DNA of 64,000 nucleotides from an uncultured Alphaproteobacteria bacterium (GTDB taxonomy: Bacteria; Pseudomonadota; Alphaproteobacteria; CAVTAV01), in assembly GCA_963821875.1 (NCBI GenBank), contig CAWGFE010000002.1, forward strand, positions 739,643-803,642, in the 5' to 3' direction. The notes below the pieces were generated by a model. The model saw only the letters and a program-made list of their open reading frames with translations. It did not search any database and was not told where the DNA came from. A program made the position numbers and the translations under genes. Positions 401-46,579 of this stretch are shown here, one piece after another; position 1 is the stretch's first letter, and each line of letters begins with the position of its first letter.

Positions 401-518
401 GGCCGGGAGCAAGAGGTCCGTTCGGACTGAGCCCGTCGAAGCCCGTCTTGCTCAGGCCTGAGCGTGAACGACATGGATCCCGGCTCTTCGGCCGGGACGG
501 CGACGGGTGGCGGCGTAT

Positions 519-2574
519 CTACGTCGCCCGTTCCTCCACCAGCTTGATGATGTCGCTCATGATCTCGTCGAGCTGGTAGTCCTTCGGCGTATAGACGCCG
601 GCGACGCCCAGGGATTTGAGTTTGGCTTCGTCCTCGACCGGGATGATGCCGCCGGCGACGACCGGAACGTCGTCGAGGCCGGCCTTATGCAGGCGTGTCG
701 TCACGTCGCCGATCAGGCCCACATGGCTGCCCGACAGGATCGACAGGCCGATGACATGCACCTTTTCTTCCAGCGCCGCGTTGACGATCTGGGCCGGCGT
801 CAGGCGGATGCCGTCATAGACGACGTCCATGCCGCAATCCCGGGCCCTCACGGCGATCTGTTCCGCGCCGTTCGAATGGCCGTCGAGCCCTGGTTTGCCG
901 ATCAGGATCTTCAAACGCCGTCCGAGTTTTTCAGAGAGCGCGTCGACGCGCTCGCGAAGCGCCGTGATGTCGGTGACGCCCGCCGCGCTGGCTGCCCCCG
1001 ACGCCCCGCCGATCCCGGTGGGCGCGCGATATTCGCCGAAGACGTCCCGCAGCACACCGGCCCATTCGCCGGTGGTCACGCCCGCCTCCGCCGCCTCGAT
1101 CGATGCCGGCATGATGTTGCGGCCTTCTGATGCCGCCGCTTTGAGCGCCGCCAGCGCCGTCTCGACGGCCTCCGGATCGCGCGCCGCGCGCCAGATCTTC
1201 AGGCTGTCGATCTGGTTGGTTTCGGCGGTCTCGTCGACGGTCAGAAACTGCTCGTTGATGCCGGTGGTGAGCGGCGAGAGCTCGGTTTCGGTGAAGGCAT
1301 TGACGCCGACCACGGTCTGTTCGCCGGATTCGACGGCCGCCAGCCGGGCGGCGTTGGCGGCGACGAGCCGCTCCTTCATATAGCTCGAGTTCGATCGCCG
1401 CAACCGCGCCGCCCATCGCCTCGATCCGCTCCAGCTCCGCGCGGGTCTCGGCTTTGAGCTGTTCTACCTTTTCCGCAATCACGGCCGAGCCGGCGAAGAT
1501 GTCGTCATAGTCCAGCAGGTCCGTCTCGTGGGCGACGATCTGCTGAAGCCGCAGGCTCCATTGCTGGTCCCATGGACGCGGCAGGCCGAGCGCCTCGTTC
1601 CAGGCGGGAAGCTGCACCGAGCGGGCGCGGGCGTCTTTCGAGAGCACCACCGCCAGCATTTCCAGGAGAATCCGGTAGACATTGTTCTCCGGTTGCTGCT
1701 CGGTGAGGCCGAGACTGTTCACCTGAACGCCGTAGCGGAACCGGCGATATTTCGGATCCGTAATGCCGTAGCGCTCGCCGGTGATCTCGTCCCACAGCTC
1801 GACGAAGGCGCGCATCTTGCACATCTCGGTGATGAATTTGAGCCCGGCATTCACGAAGAAGCTGATCCGGCCGACGACCTTCGGAAAATCTTCTGCGCCG
1901 ACCTGACCGGAGTCGCGCACGGCGTCCAGCACGGCGATCGCCGTCGTCAGCGAGAAGGCAAGCTCCTGCACCGGAGTCGCGCCTGCTTCCTGCAAGTGAT
2001 AGGAACAGACATTCATCGGATTCCATTTCGGAATCTCGCTATAGGTGTAGGACGCGATATCGGTGATGAGCCGCAGGCTCGGGCCGGGCGGAAAGATATA
2101 GGTCCCCCGGCTCAGATATTCCTTCATGATGTCGTTCTGCACCGTACCGGAAAGCGCCGAGGGCGAGACGCCCTGTTCCTTGGCGAGCGCGACATAAAGT
2201 GCGAGCAGCCAGGCGGCGGTCGCATTGATCGTCATGGAGGTGTTCATGCGATCCAGGGGAATGCCGTCGAACAGCGCCCGCATATCGCCGAGATGGCAGA
2301 TCGGCACGCCGACCTTGCCGACCTCGCCGCGCGCCAGCTCGTGGTCGCTGTCATAGCCGGTCTGGGTCGGAAGATCGAAGGCGACCGAGAGGCCGGTCTG
2401 GCCTTTTTCCAGATTCATCCGGTAGAGCGCGTTGGACGCGGCGGCGGAGGAGTGGCCCGAATAGGTGCGGATCAGCCACGGGCGATCCCGCTCGCGCCCG
2501 GCTTTCGTTCCCGCCTTGTCGCCGCCGTTTTGCACTTGCGTAATCGCTCCCGCGCGGCTGACGATGCGCCGCAC
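519..2574 (-). CDS. ecm: methylmalonyl-CoA mutase family, single-chain B12-dependent acyl-CoA mutase, most likely ethylmalonyl-CoA mutase; reading frame broken by an apparent 1-nt indel around 1383-1392
   Basis: ORF 931..2574 carries the catalytic TIM-barrel part (RDRPWLIRTYSGHSSAAASNALYRMNLEKGQTGLSVAFDLPTQTGYDSDH...). ORF 519..1403 carries the linker and B12-binding domain (GLDGHSNGA, the DxHxxG motif). The two frames join between ...GGAVAAIE and SSYMKERLVAANAARL..., and the tail of the first ORF is Arg-rich out-of-frame nonsense. Divergent from ccr. Confidence 0.75.
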
Positions 2575-2859
2575 AAAAAGTCCAAGCCGACTATTTTCTA
2601 TCGAACACCAAACTTGCCGAAATATCGAGGATTATTCTCGCTTCCGCAGGCTCGGCCATTTGAGTTTGGACCTGCAATCACACTATCCTGTAAAATGGTG
2701 CAGCGCAAAAATACTTGCTACGAGGATCGGAACTGAGCAGTCGATCCGTTCCAGGTCGCCTGTTCAGGGGTGGCGCGAGATCCACCAAAGCCTGACGAAC
2801 TTCTGCCGAACCGCTTGGCCAAATGACCGGTCGCGGCACGGAAGGATAGGGGCAGCGAC

Positions 2860-4164
2860 ATGGTGAAATCGGCCGATGCGAAACGTGATCCGGACGATGC
2901 GGCCTCCGCCGCCGCAGAGAAGGGTCTCTATGATCTCGGCGAGATCCCGCCCCTTGGCTATGTGCCGAAATCCATGCATGCCTGGGCAATCCGCCGCGAG
3001 CGCCACGGCCCGCCCGAACAGGCCATGCAGCTCGAAGTCGTGCCCACGCCGGCGATCGACTCGGACGAGGTGCTGGTGCTCGTGATGGCGGCGGGCGTCA
3101 ATTACAACGGTGTCTGGGCGGGCCTGGGCATTCCTGTTTCCCCCTTCGATATTCACAAGGCCGACTATCATATCGCCGGCTCCGACGCCTCGGGCATCGT
3201 CTGGGCGGTCGGCCGCCGGGTCAAACGCTGGAAGGTCGGCGACGAGGTCGTGGTCCATTGCAATCAGGACGACGGCGACGACGAGGAATGCAATGGCGGC
3301 GATCCGATGAATTCGCCGTCCCAGCGGATCTGGGGTTATGAAACGCCGGATGGATCCTTCGCCCAGTTTGCCCGCGTCCAGTCGCGCCAGCTCATGCCGC
3401 GCCCGAAACACCTCACCTGGGAAGAAAGCGCCTGTTACACCCTGACGCTGGCGACCGCCTACCGCATGCTGTTCGGCCATCGCCCGCATATCCTGCGTCC
3501 CGGCGATCACGTCCTGGTCTGGGGCGCGTCCGGAGGTCTGGGCTCGATGGCGATACAGCTCTGCGCGACCGCCGGCGCCCATGCGATCGGCGTGATCTCG
3601 GACGAGTCGAAACGCGATTATGTCCTCTCGCTCGGCGCCAAGGGCGTGATCAACCGCAAGAATTTCGATTGCTGGGGCCAGCTGCCGCCGGTCGGCGACG
3701 CCAAAGGCTATGCGGACTACATGAAAAGATGCCGCGAATTCGGCAAGGCGATCTGGGCGATCACGGGCAAGGGCAACGATGTGGATTTCGTCTTCGAGCA
3801 TCCCGGCGAGCAGACCTTCCCGGTCTCCTGTTTCGTCGTGAAACGCGGCGGCATGGTGGTGATCTGCGCCGGGACGACCGGCTATAATCTCACGCTCGAC
3901 GCGCGGTTTCTCTGGATGCGGCAGAAGCGGGTGCAGGGCAGCCATTTCGCCAATCTCAAACAGGCCAGCGAGGCGAACCGGCTGGTCATCGAGCGGCGCA
4001 TCGATCCGCGCATGTCGGAAGTCTTCGCCTGGGAGGATATTCCCCGCGCCCACACCATGATGTGGAAGAATCAGCACAAGCCCGGCAATATGGCGGTGCT
4101 CGTCTCCGCCAAATATCCAGGGCTTCGCACCCTTGAGGATGTGATCGCCGCAAACGGCCAATAG
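2860..4164 (+). CDS. ccr: crotonyl-CoA carboxylase/reductase
   Basis: 434 aa with near-colinear identity to characterised Ccr: WAIRRERHG, VLVLVMAAGVNYNGVWAGLG, HCNQDDGDDEECNGGDPM, GASGGLGS Rossmann motif. Length is typical of Ccr. Confidence 0.9.
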   Translation: MVKSADAKRDPDDAASAAAEKGLYDLGEIPPLGYVPKSMHAWAIRRERHGPPEQAMQLEVVPTPAIDSDEVLVLVMAAGVNYNGVWAGLGIPVSPFDIHKADYHIAGSDASGIVWAVGRRVKRWKVGDEVVVHCNQDDGDDEECNGGDPMNSPSQRIWGYETPDGSFAQFARVQSRQLMPRPKHLTWEESACYTLTLATAYRMLFGHRPHILRPGDHVLVWGASGGLGSMAIQLCATAGAHAIGVISDESKRDYVLSLGAKGVINRKNFDCWGQLPPVGDAKGYADYMKRCREFGKAIWAITGKGNDVDFVFEHPGEQTFPVSCFVVKRGGMVVICAGTTGYNLTLDARFLWMRQKRVQGSHFANLKQASEANRLVIERRIDPRMSEVFAWEDIPRAHTMMWKNQHKPGNMAVLVSAKYPGLRTLEDVIAANGQ

Positions 4165-4198
4165 GCGCAATTCAACAGGATCGAGGGACCACCGGGCC

Positions 4199-5899
4199 AT
4201 GACAGCGATGCCTTCAGAAACCGGGCAAACGGCCGGGTCCGACAGCCCGATCGCCCGCGCCCGGGACGCGCTCGACAGCGCGGAGTCTTTGCTTGCCGCC
4301 GCGAAGGATGGTGTCGCGGCCATGGTCGTGAGGAACGGCAAGATTGACCGTTCCCTCATGGAGGAAAATCAGTTTCCGGTTCATGGCTTCGCCTGGATGG
4401 CGACCTATGTCGAGGCGCTGCGCGAAGCTCTTGGCTGGGCCGGGCGGCTCGAGGACGAGGGCAAGTTCGGCCGCCTGGAGAAGCTCATCCTCCAAGCCGG
4501 TTTCGGCGAATATCTGGCGCAGCTCAAGGGCGGCATCCCGATGAGCCAGGGCGAAATCATCCGGCTCGAAGCCCTTGGGCTTGACGCGGAAGATCTGGCG
4601 GCTTTCGAAACGGAGACCGTCAGGTCGCTGATCGCGGAGGGCACGGGAACGACGCTGCGGGCCGAGCTTGCCGAGGTGATCGAGCACACGAATTCCAACG
4701 GGCATTTCGGCGAAGCCGGGCTCGACGACATGCTGGAGATGATCCGGGATCAGTTCCGCCGATTCGCCGACGACAAGGTCATCCCCGAGGCGCCCGGCTG
4801 GCATCATGACGACACGCTGATCCCGATGGAGATCGTCGAGGAGATGGCGGGACTCGGCGTGTTCGGCCTGACGATCCCGGAAGAGTTTGGCGGCGCGGGG
4901 CTCGGCAAGCTCGCCATGTGCGTCGTCTCGGAAGAGCTTTCGCGCGGCTATATCGGCACCGGCTCGCTCGGCACCCGCTCTGAGATCGCCGCCGAACTGA
5001 TCCTCTCCGGCGGAACACCCGGGCAGAAAGTGAAATGGCTGCCCCGGCTCGCCTCCGGCGAGATCCTGCCAACGGCGGTTTTCACAGAACCGAATACCGG
5101 CTCCGATCTCGGCTCGCTGCGCACCCGGGCGGTCAAGGATATGACCGACGAGGGCGATCCGGTCTACAAAATCTCCGGCAACAAGACCTGGATCACCCAT
5201 GGCGCGCGGAGCGACCTGATGACGCTGCTGGCGCGCACCGATCCGAAAGAGACCGGCTATCGCGGCCTCAGCATGTTCATCGCGGAAAAGCCGCGCGGCA
5301 CCGACGAGGATCCGTTTCCCGCCGAGGGCATGACCGGCGGCGAGATCGAGGTGCTCGGTTATCGCGGCATGAAGGAATACGAACTCGGCTTCGACGGCTT
5401 CGAGGTGCCGTCGGAAAATCTGCTGGGCGGCGTCGAGGGCCAGGGCTTCAAGCAGCTCATGGCGACCTTCGAGGCGGCGCGGATCCAGACGGCGGCGCGA
5501 GCGCTCGGCGTGGCGCAATGCGCACTGGAACTCGGTCTCGCCTATGCGCTGGATCGTGTGCAGTTCGGCAAGCCGATCTACGCCTTCCCCCGCGTCTCGG
5601 GCAAAATCGCTTGGATGGTCACCGAGATCATGCTCGCCCGCCAGCTCACCTATTTCGCCGCCCGGCGCAAGGATGAAGGCGAGCGCTGCGATCTCGAAGC
5701 CGGCATGGCGAAACTGCTCGCCGCGCGCGTCGCCTGGGCCGCCGCCGACAACGCGCTGCAGATCCATGGCGGCAACGGCTATGCGCTGGAATATCCGATC
5801 AGCCGTGTGCTGTGCGACGCGCGTATCCTCAATATTTTCGAAGGCGCCGCCGAGATTCAGGCGGAAGTCATCGCCCGGCGGCTGCTGGAGAGCGGCTAG
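4199..5899 (+). CDS. mcd: acyl-CoA dehydrogenase with N-terminal extension, probably (2S)-methylsuccinyl-CoA dehydrogenase
   Basis: 566 aa. ACAD middle and C-terminal domains (TEPNTGSDLGSLRTRA, QIHGGNGYALEYPISRVLCDARIL) preceded by about 170 extra N-terminal residues, as in Mcd. Sits next to ecm and ccr. Confidence 0.75.
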   Translation: MTAMPSETGQTAGSDSPIARARDALDSAESLLAAAKDGVAAMVVRNGKIDRSLMEENQFPVHGFAWMATYVEALREALGWAGRLEDEGKFGRLEKLILQAGFGEYLAQLKGGIPMSQGEIIRLEALGLDAEDLAAFETETVRSLIAEGTGTTLRAELAEVIEHTNSNGHFGEAGLDDMLEMIRDQFRRFADDKVIPEAPGWHHDDTLIPMEIVEEMAGLGVFGLTIPEEFGGAGLGKLAMCVVSEELSRGYIGTGSLGTRSEIAAELILSGGTPGQKVKWLPRLASGEILPTAVFTEPNTGSDLGSLRTRAVKDMTDEGDPVYKISGNKTWITHGARSDLMTLLARTDPKETGYRGLSMFIAEKPRGTDEDPFPAEGMTGGEIEVLGYRGMKEYELGFDGFEVPSENLLGGVEGQGFKQLMATFEAARIQTAARALGVAQCALELGLAYALDRVQFGKPIYAFPRVSGKIAWMVTEIMLARQLTYFAARRKDEGERCDLEAGMAKLLAARVAWAAADNALQIHGGNGYALEYPISRVLCDARILNIFEGAAEIQAEVIARRLLESG

Positions 5900-5907
5900 G
5901 CGGAAAC

Positions 5908-5946
5908 GAAAAAGGCCGCGTCATCGACACGGCCTTTCGTTCTTTG
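5908..5946. terminator. bidirectional rho-independent terminator between convergent mcd and the lectin gene
   Basis: GAAAAAGGCCGcgtcatcgacaCGGCCTTTcgttctttg: an 8-bp GC-rich stem with an A-tract on one side and a T-tract on the other. Confidence 0.5.
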
Positions 5947-5973
5947 CAATAGATACTCGCGACGTAGCGCTGA

Positions 5974-6708
5974 TTATTCCGTCGCGGCCTTCTTGGCGCC
6001 GGTCTTGGCGGCAGCCGATGCGTCCTTTTCCTTCTTCGCCGGGGCGGGATATTCGGCGATATACCAGATGAAGCCTTTCTTGCGGCCCCAGGCCAGCCAC
6101 CGGAAATTATAGTCCGGCGATATCGTGACGCCGAGATTGGGGCCGTCCTCGGTGCAATCCTCGCCGTGATCGTCGCGGGTCCACTGAGCGCCCCAATTGG
6201 CGTAATCGCCGACCTTGAATGTCGTGCCGTTGACCCAGTCGAGTTGCCGGGCGTCGCAGAAATACTGCAGGCCGATCCAGGCTTCCTGGGTCTGATCGAC
6301 ATACAGGTTCTTGTACAGGTTCAGCATCGTCTTCGGCGACTTGATGATCGCAAGACGGCCCTGCCGGCCTTTGTATTTATGACGCTTGGCATCGACCTCG
6401 GCGCCTTCCCAGCTGACGGTCTTGTGCGGCGTCACCAGCTGGAAGTAGCTGCCCGATGCCGGATCGTAGAACGGCGCGTAGAAGCGGCTATCCGGCGGAC
6501 CGTCGCCGAAGGCATGGGAAATGCCCTGCGGGACGTCCGAATCAGATTGCGCTGTGGCTGTCTGGATCGCGCTGAACGTCAGAACGGTCACAAAGGCGCC
6601 CGCCATGATGGGGCCGACACCCGGCACAAGTGCGCGCAGCCGGAGCGGCCGCTTCGTCTCCGCGCGGTTTTCGCGGACTCGCAGAAATCGTCTCATTCCG
6701 ATGAACAT
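5974..6708 (-). CDS. secreted C-type lectin-like domain protein (start uncertain: 6708, 6696 or 6606)
   Basis: Hydrophobic signal-like segment MAGAFVTVLTFSAIQTATAQS. The mature region has the C-type lectin signature WIGLQYFCDARQLDWVNGTTFKVGDYANWGAQWTRDDHGEDC (WIGL, W.NG, conserved Cys) and a Lys/Ala-rich C-terminal tail. Confidence 0.55.
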   Translation of the reverse strand: MFIGMRRFLRVRENRAETKRPLRLRALVPGVGPIMAGAFVTVLTFSAIQTATAQSDSDVPQGISHAFGDGPPDSRFYAPFYDPASGSYFQLVTPHKTVSWEGAEVDAKRHKYKGRQGRLAIIKSPKTMLNLYKNLYVDQTQEAWIGLQYFCDARQLDWVNGTTFKVGDYANWGAQWTRDDHGEDCTEDGPNLGVTISPDYNFRWLAWGRKKGFIWYIAEYPAPAKKEKDASAAAKTGAKKAATE

Positions 6709-6974
6709 GAAAAACAGCCCTCACGCCACAAAAGGTCACACGGCTCGTCTTGGGGTTAATTCCTACGCTGTGATGACCGGTGACCTGACTACACACACAA
6801 CCATGACATTTAATGCGTTAGGATTGTGTGAATAGTCTGCCACACCCCCACCGAAAATGCCAGAAATCCGCCATTTATGGTTAATTTCAGGTCCATCAAA
6901 GTTAACGCCTCTTCTCAATGACGCCCTGTCTGTCCTAGTGTTTGAGAACAGATCCCAGGAGGCGTTCCGGACAT

Positions 6975-7166
6975 ATGGATTTCCTGACCGTTCTAATTAT
7001 TCTCGCACTGCTCGCCGTACTCGGTGTGTTGATCACCGGCATCGTCTCGATGTTTGTGGGGGGCGAGTTCAATCGCAAATACGGCAACAAGCTGATGCAG
7101 ACGCGTGTGTTCATCCAGCTCATCGCCGTTATCCTGATCGGACTGGCATTCCTTTTCCGGCGTTAG
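6975..7166 (+). CDS. HIG1-domain (hypoxia-induced protein conserved region) small membrane protein with two transmembrane helices
   Basis: MDFLTVLIILALLAVLGVLITGIVSMFVGGEFNRKYGNKLMQTRVFIQLIAVILIGLAFLF has two TM helices and the ...GGE...R... loop typical of HIG_1_N. AGGAGG lies 12 nt upstream of the ATG at 6975. Confidence 0.6.
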   Translation: MDFLTVLIILALLAVLGVLITGIVSMFVGGEFNRKYGNKLMQTRVFIQLIAVILIGLAFLFRR

Positions 7167-7187
7167 ATCCGGCGGCGCGGGGCGGCG

Positions 7188-7751
7188 ATGGTCAAGCTCA
7201 ACAAGATCTATACCCGCACGGGAGATTCAGGCGACACCGCCCTCGTTTCCGGCAGGCGCCGGGTCAAGCATGATCTGCGGGTCGACGCCTATGGCACCGT
7301 GGACGAAGCCAATGCGGTTATCGGCCTGGCGCGGCTGGAGTCCGAGGGCGCGATAGACGCGATCCTGTTTCGTGTCCAAAACGATCTTTTCGATCTCGGT
7401 GCGGATCTGGCGAACCCGGCTGATCCGGAAGCGTCGGATAGCGCGCTGCGGATCCTGTCTGCCCAGGTCGACCGGCTGGAACGGGAGATCGACGAGATCA
7501 ACGACACTCTCTCGCCTCTGACCTCCTTCGTGCTGCCCGGCGGCACGTCTCTCGCCGCCAGGCTTCATCTCGCCCGGACCGTCGTGCGCCGGGCCGAACG
7601 GCGCATGACCGCACTGGCGGCAAGCGAAGCGGTCAATCCCGAAGCAATCAAATATGTTAACCGTCTTTCGGACCTTCTCTTTGTCATGGCGCGGCACTGC
7701 AATGACGGCGGCGCCCGGGACGTTCTCTGGGTGCCCGGCGCAAATCGTTGA
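7188..7751 (+). CDS. ATP:cob(I)alamin adenosyltransferase, PduO type
   Basis: MVKLNKIYTRTGDSGDTAL...VDAYGTVDEANAVIGLAR...FVLPGG is the hallmark N-terminus of the PduO/MMAB family. 187 aa. Confidence 0.85.
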   Translation: MVKLNKIYTRTGDSGDTALVSGRRRVKHDLRVDAYGTVDEANAVIGLARLESEGAIDAILFRVQNDLFDLGADLANPADPEASDSALRILSAQVDRLEREIDEINDTLSPLTSFVLPGGTSLAARLHLARTVVRRAERRMTALAASEAVNPEAIKYVNRLSDLLFVMARHCNDGGARDVLWVPGANR

Positions 7752-7801
7752 AACTGCTGGCGATTGGGTTTTGGGCGGGGCGTAGAGGCCGGTTGCCTTC
7801 G

Positions 7802-7830
7802 TTGACAGCTTTGTGACCATCGTTTAATCA
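7802..7830 (+). promoter_or_regulatory. sigma70-like promoter candidate upstream of etfBA (TTGACA-N17-TAATCA)
   Basis: TTGACA at 7802-7807, a 17-nt spacer, then TAATCA at 7825-7830. An inverted repeat GGATTC-N6-GAATCC follows at about 7882-7899. Confidence 0.3.
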
Positions 7831-7979
7831 TGCGGTAATTGTGCAATGCGATAAAGATGAGGCGGCCTTTAACCTAACGCCGTGGGATTCGGCAAAGAAT
7901 CCGATTTCCGCACACGCGAGGGCAGGGCCTTGGGGTCGCCTGGAGTGATGGGGAAGGAATCGTTGGAAATGGGCGCTCG

Positions 7980-8729
7980 ATGAAGATCCTCGTGCCTGTC
8001 AAACGCGTGGTCGACTACAACGTCAAGATCCGCGTCAAGCAAGACAATACGGGCGTCGACCTCGCCAATGTGAAGATGTCGATGAATCCGTTCGACGAAA
8101 TTGCCGTCGAGGAAGCGCTTCGCATCAAGGAAGCGGGCACGGCCGACGAGGTGGTCGTGGTTTCCATCGGCGTGGCGCAGGTGCAGGAAACCATCCGCAC
8201 CGGCCTCGCCATGGGGGCCGATCGCGGCATCCTGGTGAAGACCGACACCGCGCCCGAACCCCTCGCCGTCGCCAAGATCCTCAAAGCCATCGTCGACGCC
8301 GAACAGCCGGGCATCGTGCTCATGGGCAAGCAGGCGATCGACGACGATTGCAACCAGACCGGCCAGATGCTGGGCGCGCTTCTGGGCTGGCCGCAGGGCA
8401 CGTTCGCCTCGAAGGTCACCGTAGAATCCGACAAGGTCGAGGTCACGCGCGAGATCGATGGCGGTCTTGAGACGGTTTCTCTGAACCTGCCCGCGATCGT
8501 CACCACCGATCTGCGCCTGAACGAGCCGCGTTACGCGTCGCTGCCCAATATCATGAAAGCCAAGAAAAAGCCGATCGACGAGAAGACGCCAGCCGATTTC
8601 GGCGTCGATGTCGCGCCGCGCCTCGAGACGCTCAGGGTCGAGAGTCCGGAGGGCCGCAAGGCGGGCGTCAAGGTTGGCTCCGTCGCCGAGCTTGTCGACA
8701 AGCTCAAGAACGAAGCTGGTGTTATCTGA
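7980..8729 (+). CDS. etfB: electron transfer flavoprotein beta subunit
   Basis: [20 protein letters not shown]...[15 protein letters not shown]..., 249 aa, canonical EtfB. Confidence 0.9.
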
Positions 8730-8745
8730 GGGCCGGAACAGAGTC

Positions 8746-9672
8746 ATGACAAGTCTCGTCATCGCCGAACATGACAACGCATCGCTGAAGGATGCGACGC
8801 TCAACACGGTCACGGCCGCTCAAAAGCTCGGCACGGACGTTCATATGCTGGTCGCCGGCTCGGACTGCGGCGCGGTGGCCGAGGCGGCCGCCGGGGTCGC
8901 CGGCGTCTCGAAGGTCCTCGTCGCCGACGCGCCGGACTACGCCCATCCCCTGGCCGAGGCGATCGCGCCGCTGATCGTCACGCTGGCGGGTGATTACGAT
9001 GCGGTTCTGGCGCCGTCCACGACGACCGGCAAGAACATCATGCCGCGTGTCGCGGCCTTGCTGGACGTCGCGCAGATCTCTGACATCATCGAGGTCATCT
9101 CGCCCGATACCTTCAAGCGGCCGATCTATGCCGGCAACGCCATCGCGACGGTCAAGACCAGCGATCCCAAAAAAGTGATCACCGTGCGCGCCACGGCGTT
9201 CGACAAGGCGGGTGACGGCGGTTCGGGCGAAATCCAGGCGATCGAGGGGGCGGCCGATCCCGGCATTTCCCGCTTCGTCGGTCAGGAATTGTCGAAATCC
9301 GAGCGGCCGGAATTGACCTCGGCGCGGATCATCGTCTCGGGCGGGCGCGGCATGGGCAGCGGCGAAAATTTCGCGTTGCTTGAAAAGGTTGCGGACAAAC
9401 TCAACGCGGCGATCGGCGCCAGCCGGGCCGCCGTGGACGCCGGTTTCGTGCCCAACGACTATCAGGTCGGCCAGACCGGAAAGATCGTTGCGCCGGAGCT
9501 TTATATCGCGGTCGGAATTTCCGGTGCGATCCAGCATCTCGCCGGGATGAAGGACAGTAAAGTCATCGTAGCGATCAACAAGGACGAGGAAGCGCCTATC
9601 TTCCAGGTTGCGGATTACGGTCTGGTGGCCGATCTTTTTAAGGCGCTGCCCGAATTGGCGGATGCACTGTAA
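8746..9672 (+). CDS. etfA: electron transfer flavoprotein alpha subunit
   Basis: [29 protein letters not shown]... and C-terminal FAD-binding region ([10 protein letters not shown]..., [37 protein letters not shown]). ATG at 8746 is in frame with ORF 8608..9672. Confidence 0.9.
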
Positions 9673-10598
9673 TGACCGACACAATGACGCTTGAACGGGG
9701 TGACAGCAAAAACGGAACGAAGCCTATGATCAAGACGATCGGAATCATCGGCGCCGGGCAAATGGGGAACGGCATCGCGCATGTCTGTGCCCTGGCTGGT
9801 TTCAAGGTCATTCTGTACGACATCGAACCCGAGGCCGTGAACAACGCGATCGAGCGGATCGACCACAATATGGAGCGGCAGGTCTCGCGCGGGATGATCC
9901 AGGAGGCCGATCACAAGGCGGCGATGGATCTGATCAGCGGCGGCGACAGCATGGAAGCCTTCGCCGACGCCGATCTCGTCGTCGAGGCCGCGGTCGAGAA
10001 CGAAGAGGTCAAGCGGCGGATCTTCCGGGAGCTCTGCCCGCATCTCAAACCCTCGGCGATCGTCGCGTCGAATACCTCTTCGATTTCCATCACTCGTCTC
10101 GCATCCACGACCGACCGGCCCGAAAAATTCATCGGCATGCATTTCATGAATCCGGTGCCGCTGATGCAGCTGGTGGAACTGATCCGCGGCATCGCAACGG
10201 GCGAGGACACCTTCAAGGTCATTCGCGAGGTCGTGATCAAGCTCGGCAAGACACCGGCCAACGCCGAAGACTTCCCGGCCTTTATCGTCAACCGCATCCT
10301 GCTGCCGATGATCAACGAAGCGATCTACACGCTCTATGAGGGCGTCGGCACGGTCGAGGCGATCGACACGGCCATGCGTCTCGGCGCCAATCATCCCATG
10401 GGACCGCTGCAACTCGCGGATTTCATCGGGCTGGACACCTGCCTGTCGGTGATGCAGGTGCTCTATGAGGGGCTCGCCGATTCCAAATACCGGCCCTGCC
10501 CGCTGCTGGTGAAATATGTCGAAGCCGGCTGGATCGGCCGCAAGGTCGGCCGCGGCTTCTACGATTATACGGGCGACGAACCGGTTCCGACGCGCTGA
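9672..10598 (+). CDS. hbd: 3-hydroxybutyryl-CoA dehydrogenase (3-hydroxyacyl-CoA dehydrogenase family)
   Basis: IGIIGAGQMGNGIAHVCALAGF NAD-binding motif plus 3HCDH C-domain. The ATG at 9672 overlaps the etfA stop (TAATG); an alternative start is at 9726 (MIKTIGIIGAG). Confidence 0.85.
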   Translation: MTDTMTLERGDSKNGTKPMIKTIGIIGAGQMGNGIAHVCALAGFKVILYDIEPEAVNNAIERIDHNMERQVSRGMIQEADHKAAMDLISGGDSMEAFADADLVVEAAVENEEVKRRIFRELCPHLKPSAIVASNTSSISITRLASTTDRPEKFIGMHFMNPVPLMQLVELIRGIATGEDTFKVIREVVIKLGKTPANAEDFPAFIVNRILLPMINEAIYTLYEGVGTVEAIDTAMRLGANHPMGPLQLADFIGLDTCLSVMQVLYEGLADSKYRPCPLLVKYVEAGWIGRKVGRGFYDYTGDEPVPTR

Positions 10599-26823: not shown

Positions 26824-28512
26824 TCACTCCTTGCGGACCGCCGTGATCTCCGCACCCGGAAAATTCTCGAGCACCGTCTTGACCAGCGGATCGCGCAGCG
26901 CCTGCTCGCGGATCTCGTTTTCCCGGGCCAGTTGTCGCTCGCGCAGGGTAGGCTCGCCGAGGTCCTGCGTCACGCTCACCACCCAGCGCTCGCCGGTCCA
27001 GGCCTTCATCTTGTCCCCGATCTGGAACGCCAGATTCGCCGGCGCCTTGTCCTCGATCCGAACTTCCAGCTGACCGTGGGAGAACCGCACCAGATGCACA
27101 TGGTCGATCAGGTGGGTGTGGAGAATCATCTCGCGCTTTTCCTCGAACAGCGCGACCAGTTCGGCGAAGCTCGTCGGCGCGGATGCGAGTTCCTCGTCCG
27201 TCGCCGGCTGAGGCGAGGCCATCGCGCGGGCCGTGCCGGCCGAGCCGCTCGCCGTGCTGAAGCTCGACCGCGCCACCGGTTCGCGGGCGGCGCTGGCGGG
27301 CGCATCCCGGCGCGGCGGTGTGGCGGACGCGTCGCGCTGCTCGTCCAGCTTCCGCACCAGATCGGCGGGATCGGGAAGTTCGGCGGAGAAGGCGAGTCGC
27401 ACCAACGCCATTTCCGCCGCCGCATCGGGCGAGGGCGCGCGGCGCGCTTCATCGAGCCCCTTGAGCAGGATCTGCCAGCTGCGGGTCAGCACCGGCATCG
27501 ACAGTTTGGCGGCAAAGTCGCGGCCCTTCACGCGCTCGGTTTCGCCCATAGCCATGTCCTCGCCGGCATCCGGCGCGAGTTTCAGGCGGGTCAGCCAATG
27601 GGTGAGATTCAAGAGATCCTCGAGGATCACGGTGGGATCCGCGCCGAGCCGGTATTGCTCGCGCATGATTTCCAGCGCCGATGCGATCTCGCCGGACATC
27701 ACGGCTTCGAACAGATCGAACATGCGTGCCCGGTCGGCCAGGCCCAGCATGTCGCGCACGCGCTCCTCGGTCACCTCGCCCGCGCCGTGGGCCAGCGCCT
27801 GCTCCAGCAGCGACTGCGCGTCGCGCACTGAGCCGTCGGCGGCGCGTGCGATCAGGCCGAAGGCGGCGTCCTCCACCGAGACGTTTTCCTTCTCGGTGAT
27901 CATGCGCAGATTGTCGATCAGCACGGGGATCTCGACGCGCCGCAGGTCGAATCGCTGGCAGCGCGAGAGCACCGTCACCGGCACCTTGCGGATTTCCGTG
28001 GTGGCGAAGATGAAGCGGACATGTTCCGGCGGCTCTTCGAGCGTTTTGAGAAGCGCGTTGAACGCGTTCTTCGAGAGCATATGCACTTCGTCGACGATGT
28101 AGATCTTCTCGCGTGCGGCGACCGGCGCATAGCGTACGCCGTCGATGATCTCGCGGATATCGTCGACACCGGTGCGGCTCGCGGCGTCCATTTCCATCAC
28201 ATCGACATGGCGCGACTCTGCGATCGCCACGCAATGGGTGCAGACGCCGCAGGGCTCGATCGTGGGGCCACCCTTGCCGTCCGGGCCGATGCAATTGAGG
28301 GCGCGGGCGATCAGACGCGCGGTCGTCGTCTTGCCGACGCCGCGCACGCCGGTGAGGATGAAAGCATGGGCCAGCCGCCCCGAACGGATCGCGTTCGACA
28401 GCGTGCGCACCATGGCGTCCTGGCCATAAAGCTCGGCGAAGGTCGTCGGCCGGTATTTGCGCGCGATAACGCGATAGCCACCGGCCGCTTTCTCCGTCCC
28501 GGCGTCGGTCAT
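26824..28512 (-). CDS. dnaX: DNA polymerase III subunits gamma/tau
   Basis: YRVIARKYRPTTFAELYGQDAMVRTLSNAIRSGRLAHAFILTGVRGVGKTTTARLIARALNC..., AAA+ clamp-loader motifs, and C4 zinc module CGVCTHC. Confidence 0.9.
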   Translation of the reverse strand: MTDAGTEKAAGGYRVIARKYRPTTFAELYGQDAMVRTLSNAIRSGRLAHAFILTGVRGVGKTTTARLIARALNCIGPDGKGGPTIEPCGVCTHCVAIAESRHVDVMEMDAASRTGVDDIREIIDGVRYAPVAAREKIYIVDEVHMLSKNAFNALLKTLEEPPEHVRFIFATTEIRKVPVTVLSRCQRFDLRRVEIPVLIDNLRMITEKENVSVEDAAFGLIARAADGSVRDAQSLLEQALAHGAGEVTEERVRDMLGLADRARMFDLFEAVMSGEIASALEIMREQYRLGADPTVILEDLLNLTHWLTRLKLAPDAGEDMAMGETERVKGRDFAAKLSMPVLTRSWQILLKGLDEARRAPSPDAAAEMALVRLAFSAELPDPADLVRKLDEQRDASATPPRRDAPASAAREPVARSSFSTASGSAGTARAMASPQPATDEELASAPTSFAELVALFEEKREMILHTHLIDHVHLVRFSHGQLEVRIEDKAPANLAFQIGDKMKAWTGERWVVSVTQDLGEPTLRERQLARENEIREQALRDPLVKTVLENFPGAEITAVRKE

Positions 28513-28581: not shown

Positions 28582-28641
28582 GAACGATCACGATGCAAAC
28601 GATCACGATGCGAACGGTCACGACGTGAACGACAACGACTT
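28582..28641. repeat. imperfect 15-bp tandem repeat, four copies, between the ffs 3' end and the dnaX start
   Basis: gaacgatcacgatgc / aaacgatcacgatgc / gaacggtcacgacgt / gaacgacaacgactt, contiguous. The + strand ORF 28580..28789 (DHDANDHDANGHDVND) is the translation artefact of this repeat. Confidence 0.6.
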
Positions 28642-41192: not shown

Positions 41193-41279
41193 TGCCCGGA
41201 AGATGGTATGCGCGACGATCATGTCGGACGATGGGGCCGCCGCGATGAAATCCGCGCGATCACGACCAGGAAAGACGCC

Positions 41280-41879
41280 ATGAGAGTTTTGTTGTCGTCC
41301 CGCCCGATTTTAGCCCGGGCCTCGCCGTCCATGCGCCGTCTGGCCGTGCTGGGCTCGACCCTGACGCTTATGGCGAGCGCCGGGGGCGCCATGGCCGCCC
41401 AGTCGCTCGGCCTCAATCACGACGCCAAGCAGAAGATCAATATTTCCGCCGACAGCATGGAAGTCCGCCAGTCGCAGAAGGTGGCCAATTTCAAGGGCAA
41501 TGTGGTGGCCGTCCAGGGCGATCTGACCATGAAGGCGGATAGCGTCAAGGTGTTCTACAGCCTGCAAAAACAGGATTCGGGCACGACCCGGATCGACCGG
41601 ATCGACGCGTCGGGCGATGTCCATATCGAATCGCCCAACGAGAGCGCGAGCGGCAATTGGGGCGTCTACGACGTCGGCCGGGAGCTGTTGACGCTCGGTG
41701 GCGCGGTCAAGCTGAAGCGCGGCGAAACCGTGGTGCAGGGCAGCCGGCTGGAACTCGATCTCAAGACCGGCAAGAGCCGCATGGTCAGCGGCTCCTCCGA
41801 CGACCAGTCGGGGCGGGTGCACGGCGTCTTCGCGCCGCCCGAATCCGACCAGAAAAGCGGCGGAAAGACGGGCCAGTAG
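41280..41879 (+). CDS. lptA: LPS export periplasmic protein LptA (OstA-like)
   Basis: Signal peptide MRRLAVLGSTLTLMASAGGAMAAQS, OstA-like repeats (INISADSMEVRQSQKVANFKGNVVAVQGDLTMKADSVKVFY...). AGGAAAG RBS upstream of the ATG at 41280; an alternative start is at 41331. Confidence 0.75.
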   Translation: MRVLLSSRPILARASPSMRRLAVLGSTLTLMASAGGAMAAQSLGLNHDAKQKINISADSMEVRQSQKVANFKGNVVAVQGDLTMKADSVKVFYSLQKQDSGTTRIDRIDASGDVHIESPNESASGNWGVYDVGRELLTLGGAVKLKRGETVVQGSRLELDLKTGKSRMVSGSSDDQSGRVHGVFAPPESDQKSGGKTGQ

Positions 41880-45733: not shown

Positions 45734-45955
45734 TTAGTGGACGCTGACGGGCTCCACGCCGTTCTGGACCGCGAGCGCGAAGGCGACCTCTCTGGTCGGC
45801 GCGGCGGCGATCTGGGAGCCACCGGCGGAGAAGATCCCGAATTGCGGCTGTCCGTCGATCAGCATGGGCTTGATATAGACCAGATGATCCGCACCCAGGC
45901 TGGCGAGGATTTCGGTGGTGATCGCAGCCTCTGTCTGTTCACTTTTTTCGTACAT
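45734..45955 (-). CDS. DUF1150-family small protein (co-operonic with hsp20)
   Basis: 73 aa: ...LGADHLVYIKPMLIDGQPQFGIFSAGGSQIA.... This family is routinely found next to Hsp20 genes in Rhizobiales-type genomes. Confidence 0.6.
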   Translation of the reverse strand: MYEKSEQTEAAITTEILASLGADHLVYIKPMLIDGQPQFGIFSAGGSQIAAAPTREVAFALAVQNGVEPVSVH

Positions 45956-45995
45956 GGCACACTTCCTTACTCGGCCGGCTGTTCGGCCGTGTGGC

Positions 45996-46475
45996 TTAAC
46001 GAACCCTCGCGACGGAAACTTCTTCCGCTTCTTCGGGCGTGGCCGTCTCGGGCTTGTCCGCCTTGCCGGCGGTAATCTTCACCTGACGGACGACGGTGCT
46101 GGGTTCCGGGCGAACCAGGTCTATTTCGAGAAGCCCGTTGTGCAGATGGGCGGCCGAGACCTCGATGCCCTCGGCGAGCACGAAGGATTTCTGGAACTGC
46201 CGCGCGGCGATGCCGCGATGGAGATACTCCCGGCTGTTGTCTTCCTCCGGCTGTTTGCCCCGAATGACGAGTTGATCGGCCTCCACGGTCGCTGAAAGCG
46301 CCTCGTTGGAGAAGCCGGCCACCGCGAGCGTAATTCGCAGCGTCGAATCGCCAAGCCGTTCGATATTGTAAGGGGGATAGCCGTCGCTCGATGACTTCGC
46401 GACCGAATCGAGCAACCGCTCGACACGCTCAAATCCGAGCAAGAGTGGGCTGTTGAATAGGGAAACACGCGACAT
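45996..46475 (-). CDS. Hsp20-family small heat shock protein
   Basis: Alpha-crystallin domain: YPPYNIERLGDSTLRITLAVAGFSNEALSATVEADQLVIRGK...GLLEIDL. Confidence 0.85.
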   Translation of the reverse strand: MSRVSLFNSPLLLGFERVERLLDSVAKSSSDGYPPYNIERLGDSTLRITLAVAGFSNEALSATVEADQLVIRGKQPEEDNSREYLHRGIAARQFQKSFVLAEGIEVSAAHLHNGLLEIDLVRPEPSTVVRQVKITAGKADKPETATPEEAEEVSVARVR

Positions 46476-46579
46476 AAGGCCTTCTCCTCCATCTGAGCGA
46501 GTTCGCCGCTCGGGGCCCGTTTCGGCGCCCCTGTTGGTCCATGCGGCGGTCCTCGAAAGGCCCCGCCGCGTCAGCCGTT
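46476..46579 (-). promoter_or_regulatory. ROSE-like RNA-thermometer candidate in the hsp20 5' leader (about 100 nt)
   Basis: Leader (minus strand) ...ACGGGCCCCGAGCGGCGAACUCGCUCAGAUGGAGGAGAAGGCCUUAUG. The SD GGAGGAG can pair with the upstream CUC(G)CUC, leaving a single bulged G, which is the hallmark geometry of ROSE elements. Hairpin at plus coordinates 46484-46501. Confidence 0.35.

Follow-up and report, generated by a model that had tools for sequence, protein, structure and literature searches.

The (2R)-ethylmalonyl-CoA mutase (Ecm, or MeaA) of the ethylmalonyl-CoA pathway has been characterized in Rhodobacter sphaeroides and Methylobacterium extorquens. In both organisms, the enzyme is a single chain of about 660–685 amino acids, in which a barrel is followed by a linker and a C-terminal B12-binding domain. 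Other acyl-CoA mutases are naturally split, as with IcmA/IcmB and the archaeal Mcm subunits. Here, we describe an alphaproteobacterial ecm gene from a contiguous stretch of 64,000 nucleotides, hereafter “the window,” that is laid out like the characterized genes, except that a single base disrupts the frame at codon 395/396. The initial annotation left two explanations open, namely that the gene carries a genuine inactivating mutation, or that the break arose in assembly or base-calling. We favor the second, based on the GANTC context of the surplus base, the recurrence of the event in other assemblies, and the intact frame of a close relative.

As the initial annotation had recognized, the gene is represented by two minus-strand ORFs in different frames, 931..2574 (547 amino acids) and 519..1403 (294 amino acids). 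These are two frames of one ecm gene, separated by a single-base frameshift that we locate at 1389–1391, in agreement with the proposed location. Deleting one base there yields a protein of 684 amino acids (about 685 had been expected) and regains the SSYMK motif, whose residues S396, S397, Y398, M399, and K400 do not vary across the alignment. The minus strand across the break reads GCGATCGAACTCGAGCTATATGAAG. Frame A runs to ...GGAVAAIE and then into nonsense (LELYEGAARRRQRR...), while frame B reads ...SSYMKERLVAANAARL... across the same region. Consistent with this, matches to the Pfam MM_CoA_mutase model are divided between the ORFs, with model positions 36–409 in the first and positions 402–512, together with the B12-binding domain, in the second; a GC3 frame plot places the frame change at about 1420–1450. 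The N-terminal part is 92–93% identical to the proteins P0280 and P0001 and has a GC3 of 0.82. It ends at Ile394, directly followed by the Glu/Asp395 codon at 1390–1392. The C-terminal part has a GC3 of 0.86 and contains no further defects. Coordinates are listed in Table 1.

Table 1. Features of the ecm locus, with positions given in the window.
Feature	Position	Strand	Description
Surplus base	1389..1391	-	One A of coding-strand GAA (T1390/T1391 on the + strand) or C1389
GAGT[T]CGA	1387..1394	+	GANTC (CcrM-type) motif overlapping TCGA, interrupted by the extra T; proposed error-prone context
ecm/meaA, N-terminal in-frame part	1392..2574	-	Residues 1–394; substrate-binding (beta/alpha)8 barrel
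ecm/meaA, C-terminal part	519..1388	-	Other frame; end of mutase domain, linker, B12-binding domain
ccr, crotonyl-CoA carboxylase/reductase	2860..4164	+	Intact; divergent from ecm; TIGR01751 equivalog, 612.9 bits (cut-off 378.55)
mcd-like acyl-CoA dehydrogenase	4199..5899	+	Intact; matches acyl-CoA dehydrogenase families; candidate methylsuccinyl-CoA dehydrogenase

The identity of the gene as an ethylmalonyl-CoA mutase, suggested from the start, is well supported. The repaired protein is 86–89% identical to the closest full-length meaA proteins and 72–78% identical to many others; proteins across this range (72–89%) are named meaA or (2R)-ethylmalonyl-CoA mutase by their sources. It matches TIGR00641 over residues 22–519 (479 bits) and TIGR00640 over residues 552–682 (122 bits), i.e., the catalytic and B12-binding domains lie in one polypeptide once one base is removed, and in two frames as written. 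The DxHxxG cobalamin-binding motif is present as DGHSNG (GKPGLDGHSNGAEQ), with D564, H566, and G569 invariant in alignment A1. The methylmalonyl-CoA mutase equivalog NF006944 (563 bits; cut-off 876) and the IcmF model (192 bits; cut-off 1500) both score under their cut-offs. Percent identity and the general family models thus point to the MeaA clade rather than to methylmalonyl-CoA or isobutyryl-CoA mutase, and to an ordinary single-polypeptide Ecm of an alphaproteobacterium, with a predicted conversion of (2R)-ethylmalonyl-CoA to (2S)-methylsuccinyl-CoA. The gene is associated with ccr, and the mcd-like gene comes next after ccr. Family matches confirm that both of these neighbors are intact, as initially annotated. 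Indeed, the cluster is intact throughout, including genes for a PduO-type adenosyltransferase, etfBA, and a 3-hydroxyacyl-CoA dehydrogenase.

Alignment with orthologues, a check that the initial annotation had called for, reveals one indel at 1389–1391, and the orthologues continue past the break. The exact identity of the surplus base is ambiguous, depending on the relative used for comparison. The closest in-frame relative covering the site, L082 (GCA_035267625.1; 97.1% nucleotide identity), comes from an assembly that appears to be built from short reads. It reads ATC GAC TCG AGC, making the extra base a coding-strand A, or a T at 1390/1391 on the + strand. By contrast, the relatives L001, L020, L022, and L042 read GAA TCG AGC, and against such GAA TCG sequences C1389 is the extra base. 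Across the 1401 nt aligned with L082, the surplus base is the sole indel (GCGGCGATCG-ACTCGAG in L082, GCGGCGATCGAACTCGAG in the window). The sequence ATCGAACTCGAG represents the form with the extra base, and ATCGACTCGAG (or ATCGAATCGAG) the form without it. The extra base had been said to create a CTCGAG site; this need not be so, because the intact sequence of L082, GCGATCGA-CTCGAG, already has one. The same intact sequence includes a GANTC site (GACTC/GAGTC). The extra base lies outside any long homopolymer.

GANTC is the sequence methylated by the CcrM methyltransferase of Alphaproteobacteria, and it is scarcer in the window than expected (183 sites observed, 387 expected). By sequence, therefore, the surplus base falls inside a motif methylated in the taxon, and methylation of this site in this organism is predicted. 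We consider it likely, with a probability of about 0.88, that the extra base is a consensus error of long-read (nanopore-type) sequencing at a methylated motif, and that the gene is an ordinary ecm. In outline, the true sequence would be ...ATC GAC TCG AGC..., the GANTC site within it would be methylated by CcrM on both strands, and the methylated adenines would disturb the pore signal. Where GANTC is followed by GA, base-calling and one round of polishing would then tend to add a T, converting GAGTCGA to GAGTTCGA on the + strand, and this spurious T would split the ecm frame. The underlying reads would be expected to have a different base count at the site. Since a sequencing error is the most likely source of the frameshift, ecm is probably intact in the organism.

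Similar events occur in other assemblies. When searched with the frameshifted product, long ENA/NCBI contigs yielded many ecm fragments whose tails are out of frame. We mapped 20 such fragments: the frame is lost at the Glu|Ser pair affected in the window (AVE|FELHE) in two of them and at the following Glu|Ser pair (LVE|FE) in eight, so that half carry an E-F-E signature at one of these pairs. The fragments were chosen by similarity to the out-of-frame tail of the window, which biases the sample toward nearby breaks, but not toward exactly two motif sites. DNA was compared for two fragments, L168 (GAAT[T]CGA) and L169 (GAGT[T]CGA), and both have the same extra T. The frameshifted contigs belong to other Alphaproteobacteria and fall in one run of ENA accessions (ERZ250394xx-5xx). 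One of these, ERZ25039549, contains contig_81353, which GenBank places in MFD05684.bin.2.104, a Microflora Danica genome; for ERZ25039500 (contig_43437) and ERZ25039495, membership of this set is suggested only by neighboring accessions and Flye-style contig names. The Microflora Danica long-read genomes are nanopore-only, produced with the LSK114 kit on PRO114M flow cells, and were processed by Guppy super-accurate base-calling, Flye assembly, and one round of Medaka 1.8.0 (PMC12313526). The window presumably derives from an assembly of this type.

Bacterial assemblies made from Oxford Nanopore data are known to contain consensus errors associated with methylation (Lohde et al. 2024, Genome Res, cited in PMC12392509). 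In Brucella, nanopore assembly errors linked to GANTC affect only some occurrences of the motif (PMC12392509). The event in the window resembles these errors in lying inside a methylated-type motif (GANTC) of which only some occurrences are hit, and in recurring at one motif across independent assemblies that presumably share their chemistry and software. However, the published errors are mostly substitutions, whereas here one nucleotide is inserted, typically a T within GANT^CGA.

A second assembly of the same species provides a more direct view of such errors. The contig_43437 (ENA ERZ25039500) was assembled independently and is 99.3–99.9% identical to the window over 54 kb; it has the identical extra base in ecm. 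It also has at least six private 1-nt indels, which truncate ccr, mcd, and a ribonucleotide reductase gene, alter the C-terminus of DnaX, and fuse ftsE to ftsX. These disruptions of core genes are very unlikely to be real, and we therefore regard contig_43437 as error-prone. The private insertion in its ccr gene falls in the same 8-mer, TCGA^CTCG (TCGACTCG), as the ecm site, an 8-mer with only two occurrences in the window. Another private indel is a deletion in GAGTC, a second GANTC site, and two more change CG^GGAA to CGCGGAA. The chance of at least three of eight indel events falling in GANTC slots is 3e-4. Counting against an error, a third site at position 3056 of the window, with 13 nt of common context (GGCGATCGACTCG), is error-free in both assemblies.

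The window itself appears accurate elsewhere. Two same-species contigs that look short-read-built, L165 and L166, show no indel relative to the window over 3345–8931 and 3344–7395, respectively, so that the window is indel-free against them over 5.6 kb; both end inside ccr, short of ecm. An error at the ecm site would therefore have to be strongly systematic. Scans of metagenome DNA and protein, together with protein searches, found no same-species short-read contig covering the site: a DNA pattern scan of metagenomes (GGCGATCGAN{0,1}CTCGAGCTATATGAAGGAGC) gave no match, a lineage-specific 211-aa protein query of metagenomes was dominated by distant orthologues (≤63% identity), and protein queries consisting of 198 aa flanking the site or of the frameshift product (547 aa) retrieved no same-species protein spanning it.

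The apparent accuracy of the window, together with the position of the extra base outside a long homopolymer, counts in favor of the alternative that a recent 1-nt insertion truly inactivated ecm, leaving a young pseudogene common to at least two closely related strains in which ccr and mcd have not yet decayed. The ethylmalonyl-CoA pathway would then be blocked at the mutase step. The presence of the same base in two assemblies from different ENA analyses, which differ by SNPs, fits this explanation, and so does the distribution of those SNPs: an 892-nt SNP-free tract (843–1735) surrounds the site within a locally divergent segment of 5.2 kb, as expected of a recently spread allele. On the other hand, the eight SNPs between the two copies of ecm comprise seven synonymous changes and one non-synonymous change in the repaired frames, and the gene has no other defect. 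We initially gave the 7:1 ratio much weight as an argument that the shared frameshift is not real. It now counts for less, given that the SNPs closest to the site are 345 and 547 nt away and the region is a recombination mosaic; the SNP-free tract, which would also be left by the recent spread of a real allele, weakens the argument further. Like frameshift pseudogenes of free-living bacteria, the locus has a single-base indel that turns a conserved gene into two overlapping ORFs, but unlike them it shows no secondary decay, its neighboring pathway genes are all intact, and the event recurs at one motif across unrelated assemblies. A real mutation would have to share, by coincidence, the form (GANTCGA +1) and in part the position of insertions in many unrelated assemblies, as well as resembling the insertion in ccr of contig_43437, while a relative that is 97% identical remains in frame. 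We consider it unlikely. Recurrence would be no coincidence if GANT^CGA +1 insertions were a genuine alphaproteobacterial event, e.g., a CcrM mutational hot spot that hits ecm or an unrecognized form of recoding, and the E-F-E junctions in environmental genomes would then reflect biology rather than base-calling; this we regard as highly improbable.

It is similarly hard to credit that a real frameshift leaves the gene functional, whether as two polypeptides or through +1 ribosomal frameshifting at GAA-C-UCG. Both halves do look to be under purifying selection, given their GC3 values and the synonymous SNPs, and split acyl-CoA mutases have precedents. In the two-polypeptide version, a barrel fragment would be made alongside a linker/B12-domain fragment started at ATG 1379 or TTG 1403. 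However, the break falls within the Pfam mutase domain (at about position 402–409 of 512) and within an invariant motif rather than at the border between subunits, and no Shine-Dalgarno-like sequence lies upstream of ATG 1379. Moreover, the first frame continues for 152 nonsense codons after the shift, making termination-reinitiation impossible. Recoding lacks a slippery sequence or homopolymer to act on, and the shift is absent from L082 and from all 80 species-representative genomes examined, hence recoding at this site is not conserved; the best match in the genome-contig scan was L001, at 87% amino-acid identity. Three specific models were also considered and rejected: programmed frameshifting (prfB-type +1 or dnaX-type −1), since GAA CUC GAG offers neither a slippery run nor an in-frame stop; a naturally split mutase with large and small subunits, with an in-domain break, no ribosome-binding site, and fused relatives; and transcriptional slippage, with no slippery or homopolymer sequence and no conservation of the shift.

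A methylation-associated consensus error thus remains the preferred explanation. Taken at face value, the sequence would indicate a bacterium that has lost the mutase step and, with it, assimilation of acetate or C1/C2 compounds via the ethylmalonyl-CoA pathway; loss of the pathway should not be concluded on this evidence. More broadly, Glu/Asp-Ser pairs encoded as GAN TCG A.. are GANTC methylation sites, and in nanopore-only alphaproteobacterial genomes such sites can gain a spurious base, so that an intact gene is mistaken for a pseudogene with an E-F-E junction. For assemblies of this kind, GANTC sites need to be checked when pseudogenes are counted or pathways called.

Across the 64 kb of the window, a GC3 frame plot and a Pfam check found no further split genes. 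Five same-strand ORF pairs looked suspicious as possible frameshifts, and all proved by Pfam to be separate, complete genes. The ftsE/ftsX pair, which is fused in contig_43437, was at first suspected of harboring another frameshift in the window; as FtsE and FtsX are ordinarily distinct proteins, we place that error in contig_43437. Lastly, judging from the starts of orthologues, translation of ecm probably begins about 13–20 codons downstream of the GTG at 2574, and an internal GTG about 13 codons past 2574 is probably the real start.

The gene for ethylmalonyl-CoA mutase (ecm or meaA, minus strand) is split between two frames, as the initial annotation had proposed: an ORF at 931..2574 (547 aa) and an ORF at 519..1403 (294 aa) overlap by ~470 nt. 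The first matches positions 36-409 of the Pfam MM_CoA_mutase model and the second matches positions 402-512 followed by a B12-binding domain, with the coding-type GC3 signal changing frame at ~1420-1450. At the break, the minus strand reads GCG ATC GAA CTC GAG CTA TAT GAA G. With one base removed, the two parts join into a single protein of 684 aa, in line with the ~685 aa anticipated, with an acyl-CoA mutase N-terminal domain at residues 22-519 and a C-terminal B12 domain at residues 552-682 (NCBIfam). Among full-length database proteins, the best matches to the repaired protein share 86-89% identity with it, and many entries whose sources call them meaA or (2R)-ethylmalonyl-CoA mutase share 72-78%. 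Repair also brings back ...AAIE-SSYMK..., whose residues S396, S397, Y398, M399, and K400 show no variation in the alignment. Both halves of the gene have coding-type GC3 (0.82 and 0.86), with no further defect. The neighboring ccr gene is intact, as had been claimed (TIGR01751, 613 bits), and is adjoined by a gene for an mcd-like acyl-CoA dehydrogenase. Together, the ORFs in two frames, the repair, and the intact neighbors confirm the frameshift.

Alignment with orthologues places the surplus base at 1389 or at T1390/T1391, depending on the relative. The C at 1389 is surplus when the window is compared with four relatives (L001, L020, L022, and L042) that read GAA TCG AGC TAY ATG AAG. The closest relative spanning this position, L082 (GCA_035267625.1, contig DATFLP010000686.1; 97.1% nucleotide identity over 1401 nt), reads GCGGCGATCGA-CTCGAGCTATATG (AAID SSYMK), in frame; its sole indel relative to the window is one A of GAAC (T1390/T1391 on the plus strand). 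The extra base had been thought to create a CTCGAG site, but this site is already present in L082. The intact sequence also holds GACTC/GAGTC, i.e., a GANTC site, which in Alphaproteobacteria is recognized by the adenine methylase CcrM. The plus strand of the window at 1387-1394 is GAGT[T]CGA (surplus base in brackets). The L082 contig begins just 10 nt upstream of the frameshift site.

An exact protein look-up with the C-terminal ecm fragment (MKERLV...) identified a near-identical twin on contig_43437 of a same-species ENA assembly, ERZ25039500. Pieces of this contig (L081, L083, L084, and L167) span window positions 1-54295 at 99.3-99.9% identity, and it carries the identical ATCGAACTCGAG at the ecm site. 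It also has indels of its own (see table). Genuine frameshifts in genes for replication, division, and nucleotide synthesis would be very unlikely; hence, contig_43437 is an error-prone assembly. Its errors are context-dependent, with two in CG^GGAA (“^” marks the insertion point) and two in GANTC sites. One of the latter hits precisely the 8-mer (TCGACTCG) found around the ecm site; the window has just two copies of this 8-mer (3056 and 3603), and each lies in ccr. The probability of at least three of eight indel events falling in GANTC slots is ~3e-4; that of the 8-mer coincidence is ~3e-7, for a coincidence defined post hoc, after the data had been seen. A third GAGTCGA site, at 3056, has 13 nt of context in common with the ecm site and is read without error in both assemblies; therefore, the error depends on more than the 8-mer. 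The CG^GGAA insertions, which give CGCGGAA, are private to contig_43437 and occur once each in mcd and in the ribonucleotide reductase gene. CGGGAA/TTCCCG occurs 50 times in the 54 kb compared, and may be a second error-prone, possibly methylated motif.

Indels of contig_43437 relative to the window, and window features downstream of mcd
Feature	Window position	Change	Context	Consequence or state
contig_43437 indel	3607	+T	TCGA^CTCG	truncated ccr call (172 aa)
contig_43437 indel	4645 (L167:1019)	+C	ACG^GGAAC	truncated mcd call (407 aa)
contig_43437 indel	19476	-C	GAGTC·TC	ftsE and ftsX fused (567 aa); normal separate genes in window
contig_43437 indel	20396	+T	GAC^TGGGGGG	start of DUF218 gene
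contig_43437 indel	22304 (L167:18679)	+C	TCG^GGAAT	774-aa ribonucleotide reductase cut to 664 aa
contig_43437 indel	27321	+G	GTGT^GGCGG	DnaX C-terminus altered
244-aa protein without Pfam domain; HIG_1_N protein	within 5974-10598
PduO-type cob(I)alamin adenosyltransferase	7188-7751			intact
etfB/etfA and 3-hydroxyacyl-CoA dehydrogenase	within 5974-10598			intact

Breaks of the same kind recur in unrelated assemblies. When the 547-aa frameshifted product was used as a query, the hits included no same-species protein but many ecm N-terminal fragments with out-of-frame tails from long ENA and NCBI contigs. The break point was mapped in 20 fragments (database proteins P0281-P0309 among them), and ten of these have an E-F-E junction: two break at the window's own codon pair (between ...AVE and FELHE...) and eight at the next Glu-Ser pair, ten codons downstream (between ...LVE and FE...), in a sample picked by similarity to the window's out-of-frame tail and hence biased toward nearby breaks, though not toward exactly two motif sites. 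Any conserved Glu/Asp-Ser pair whose codons read GAN TCG A.. necessarily contains GANTC, which explains why breaks recur at the same protein positions. At the DNA level, one example from each of these two break classes has one extra T inside GANT^CGA, the same form as in the window: L168 (2650-2700) reads GTCGAAT[T]CGAGCTACATGAAG, and L169 (2710-2760) reads GTCGAGT[T]CGAACAC. No ecm frameshift was found among the 80 species-representative genomes examined. The many split ecm genes look like false pseudogenes made by a systematic nanopore indel at CcrM sites. Across the whole window, there are 183 GANTC sites versus ~387 expected from a first-order Markov model, which fits the avoidance of CcrM sites known in Alphaproteobacteria; CTCGAG is near expectation (27 versus ~21 by a rough base-composition estimate).

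L168 and L169 come from ENA analyses ERZ25039549 and ERZ25039495, respectively. ERZ25039549 also contains contig_81353, which according to GenBank is part of the MAG MFD05684.bin.2.104; thus, at least this analysis belongs to the Microflora Danica long-read set. We assume the same of the neighboring accessions ERZ25039495 and ERZ25039500. Microflora Danica used the SQK-LSK114 kit, FLO-PRO114M flow cells, and Guppy super-accurate base-calling, followed by Flye assembly and one round of Medaka 1.8.0, without short-read polishing (PMC12313526). We infer that the window's own contig derives from the same kind of nanopore data. Benchmarking has associated methylated motifs, including GANTC in Brucella, with nanopore assembly errors that affect only particular occurrences of a motif (PMC12392509).

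The initial annotation offered two alternatives, an authentic inactivating mutation or an error in the record; recurrence of the same insertion at this motif in other assemblies favors error and counts against mutation. We consider it likely (probability of roughly 0.88) that the frameshift is a consensus error of nanopore data that recurs at presumably methylated GANTCGA sites, and that ecm is an ordinary intact gene. Speculatively, overlap of this GANTC with CTCGAG might allow additional methylation. A real, recent inactivating insertion in ecm is improbable: it is supported by the same base being common to two assemblies and by the window appearing accurate elsewhere, but a true mutation would by chance have to match, in form and motif, the errors demonstrated in other sequences. 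Far less plausible still is a functional split enzyme or programmed +1 frameshift, since the break interrupts both the mutase domain and an invariant motif, the first frame continues for 152 nonsense codons, ATG 1379 is preceded by no ribosome-binding site, there is no slippery sequence, and relatives are in frame. In practice, the case warns of spurious pseudogenes at GANTC sites in alphaproteobacterial MAGs built from nanopore reads alone.

In repaired frames, the window and contig_43437 differ in ecm by eight SNPs (synonymous to non-synonymous, 7:1); the ratios are 11:2 for ccr and 12:3 for mcd. The SNPs nearest to the frameshift are 345 and 547 nt away, leaving an identical tract of 892 nt (843-1735). 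The 5.2-kb ecm-ccr-mcd segment is ~8 times more divergent than the rest, mostly through synonymous SNPs, and from its sequence looks like a recombination mosaic. SNP density is ~0.7-0.8% in 413-5622 and ~0.1% in 5623-54295. The SNP ratios, GC3, and intact cluster fit a functional ecm, but are not decisive because the nearest SNPs are so distant and a mosaic also fits a recently spread real allele. Judging by gene content, the compact intact module downstream of mcd would provide Ecm with AdoCbl and Mcd with an electron acceptor.

The window assembly does not appear to be generally error-prone. Five same-strand ORF pairs looked suspicious in a GC3 frame plot of the full 64 kb, and Pfam showed each to be two complete, separate genes. 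Two other same-species contigs, L165 (JGI 3300009060) and L166 (ENA ERZ27257104), are 99.66-99.68% identical to window positions 3345-8931 and 3344-7395, with no indels over these ranges; ecm lies outside both. The L166 contig name (k141_...) is in a style that we take to be that of a short-read assembler. The two contigs are independent, and both start at 3344/3345, inside ccr; the contig breaks of L082, L165, and L166 may mark strain-level variation in the ecm-ccr-mcd cluster.

Upstream of dnaX (26824-28512), at intergenic position 28582, the 15-nt unit AACGATCACGATGCA occurs once in the window and twice in tandem in contig_43437, probably a real length polymorphism. At 41208-41212, the start of an LptA-like gene (41208-41879), the window has ATGCGCGAC and contig_43437 has ATGCGAC; this GC dinucleotide difference falls on the predicted start codon and takes the predicted length from 223 to 199 aa. 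At 45734-46577 (minus strand), a small DUF1150 gene comes after an Hsp20-family gene, and Pfam matches it at model positions 37-76 only; the corresponding call in contig_43437 is 73 aa long, and the product is probably a short, divergent protein.
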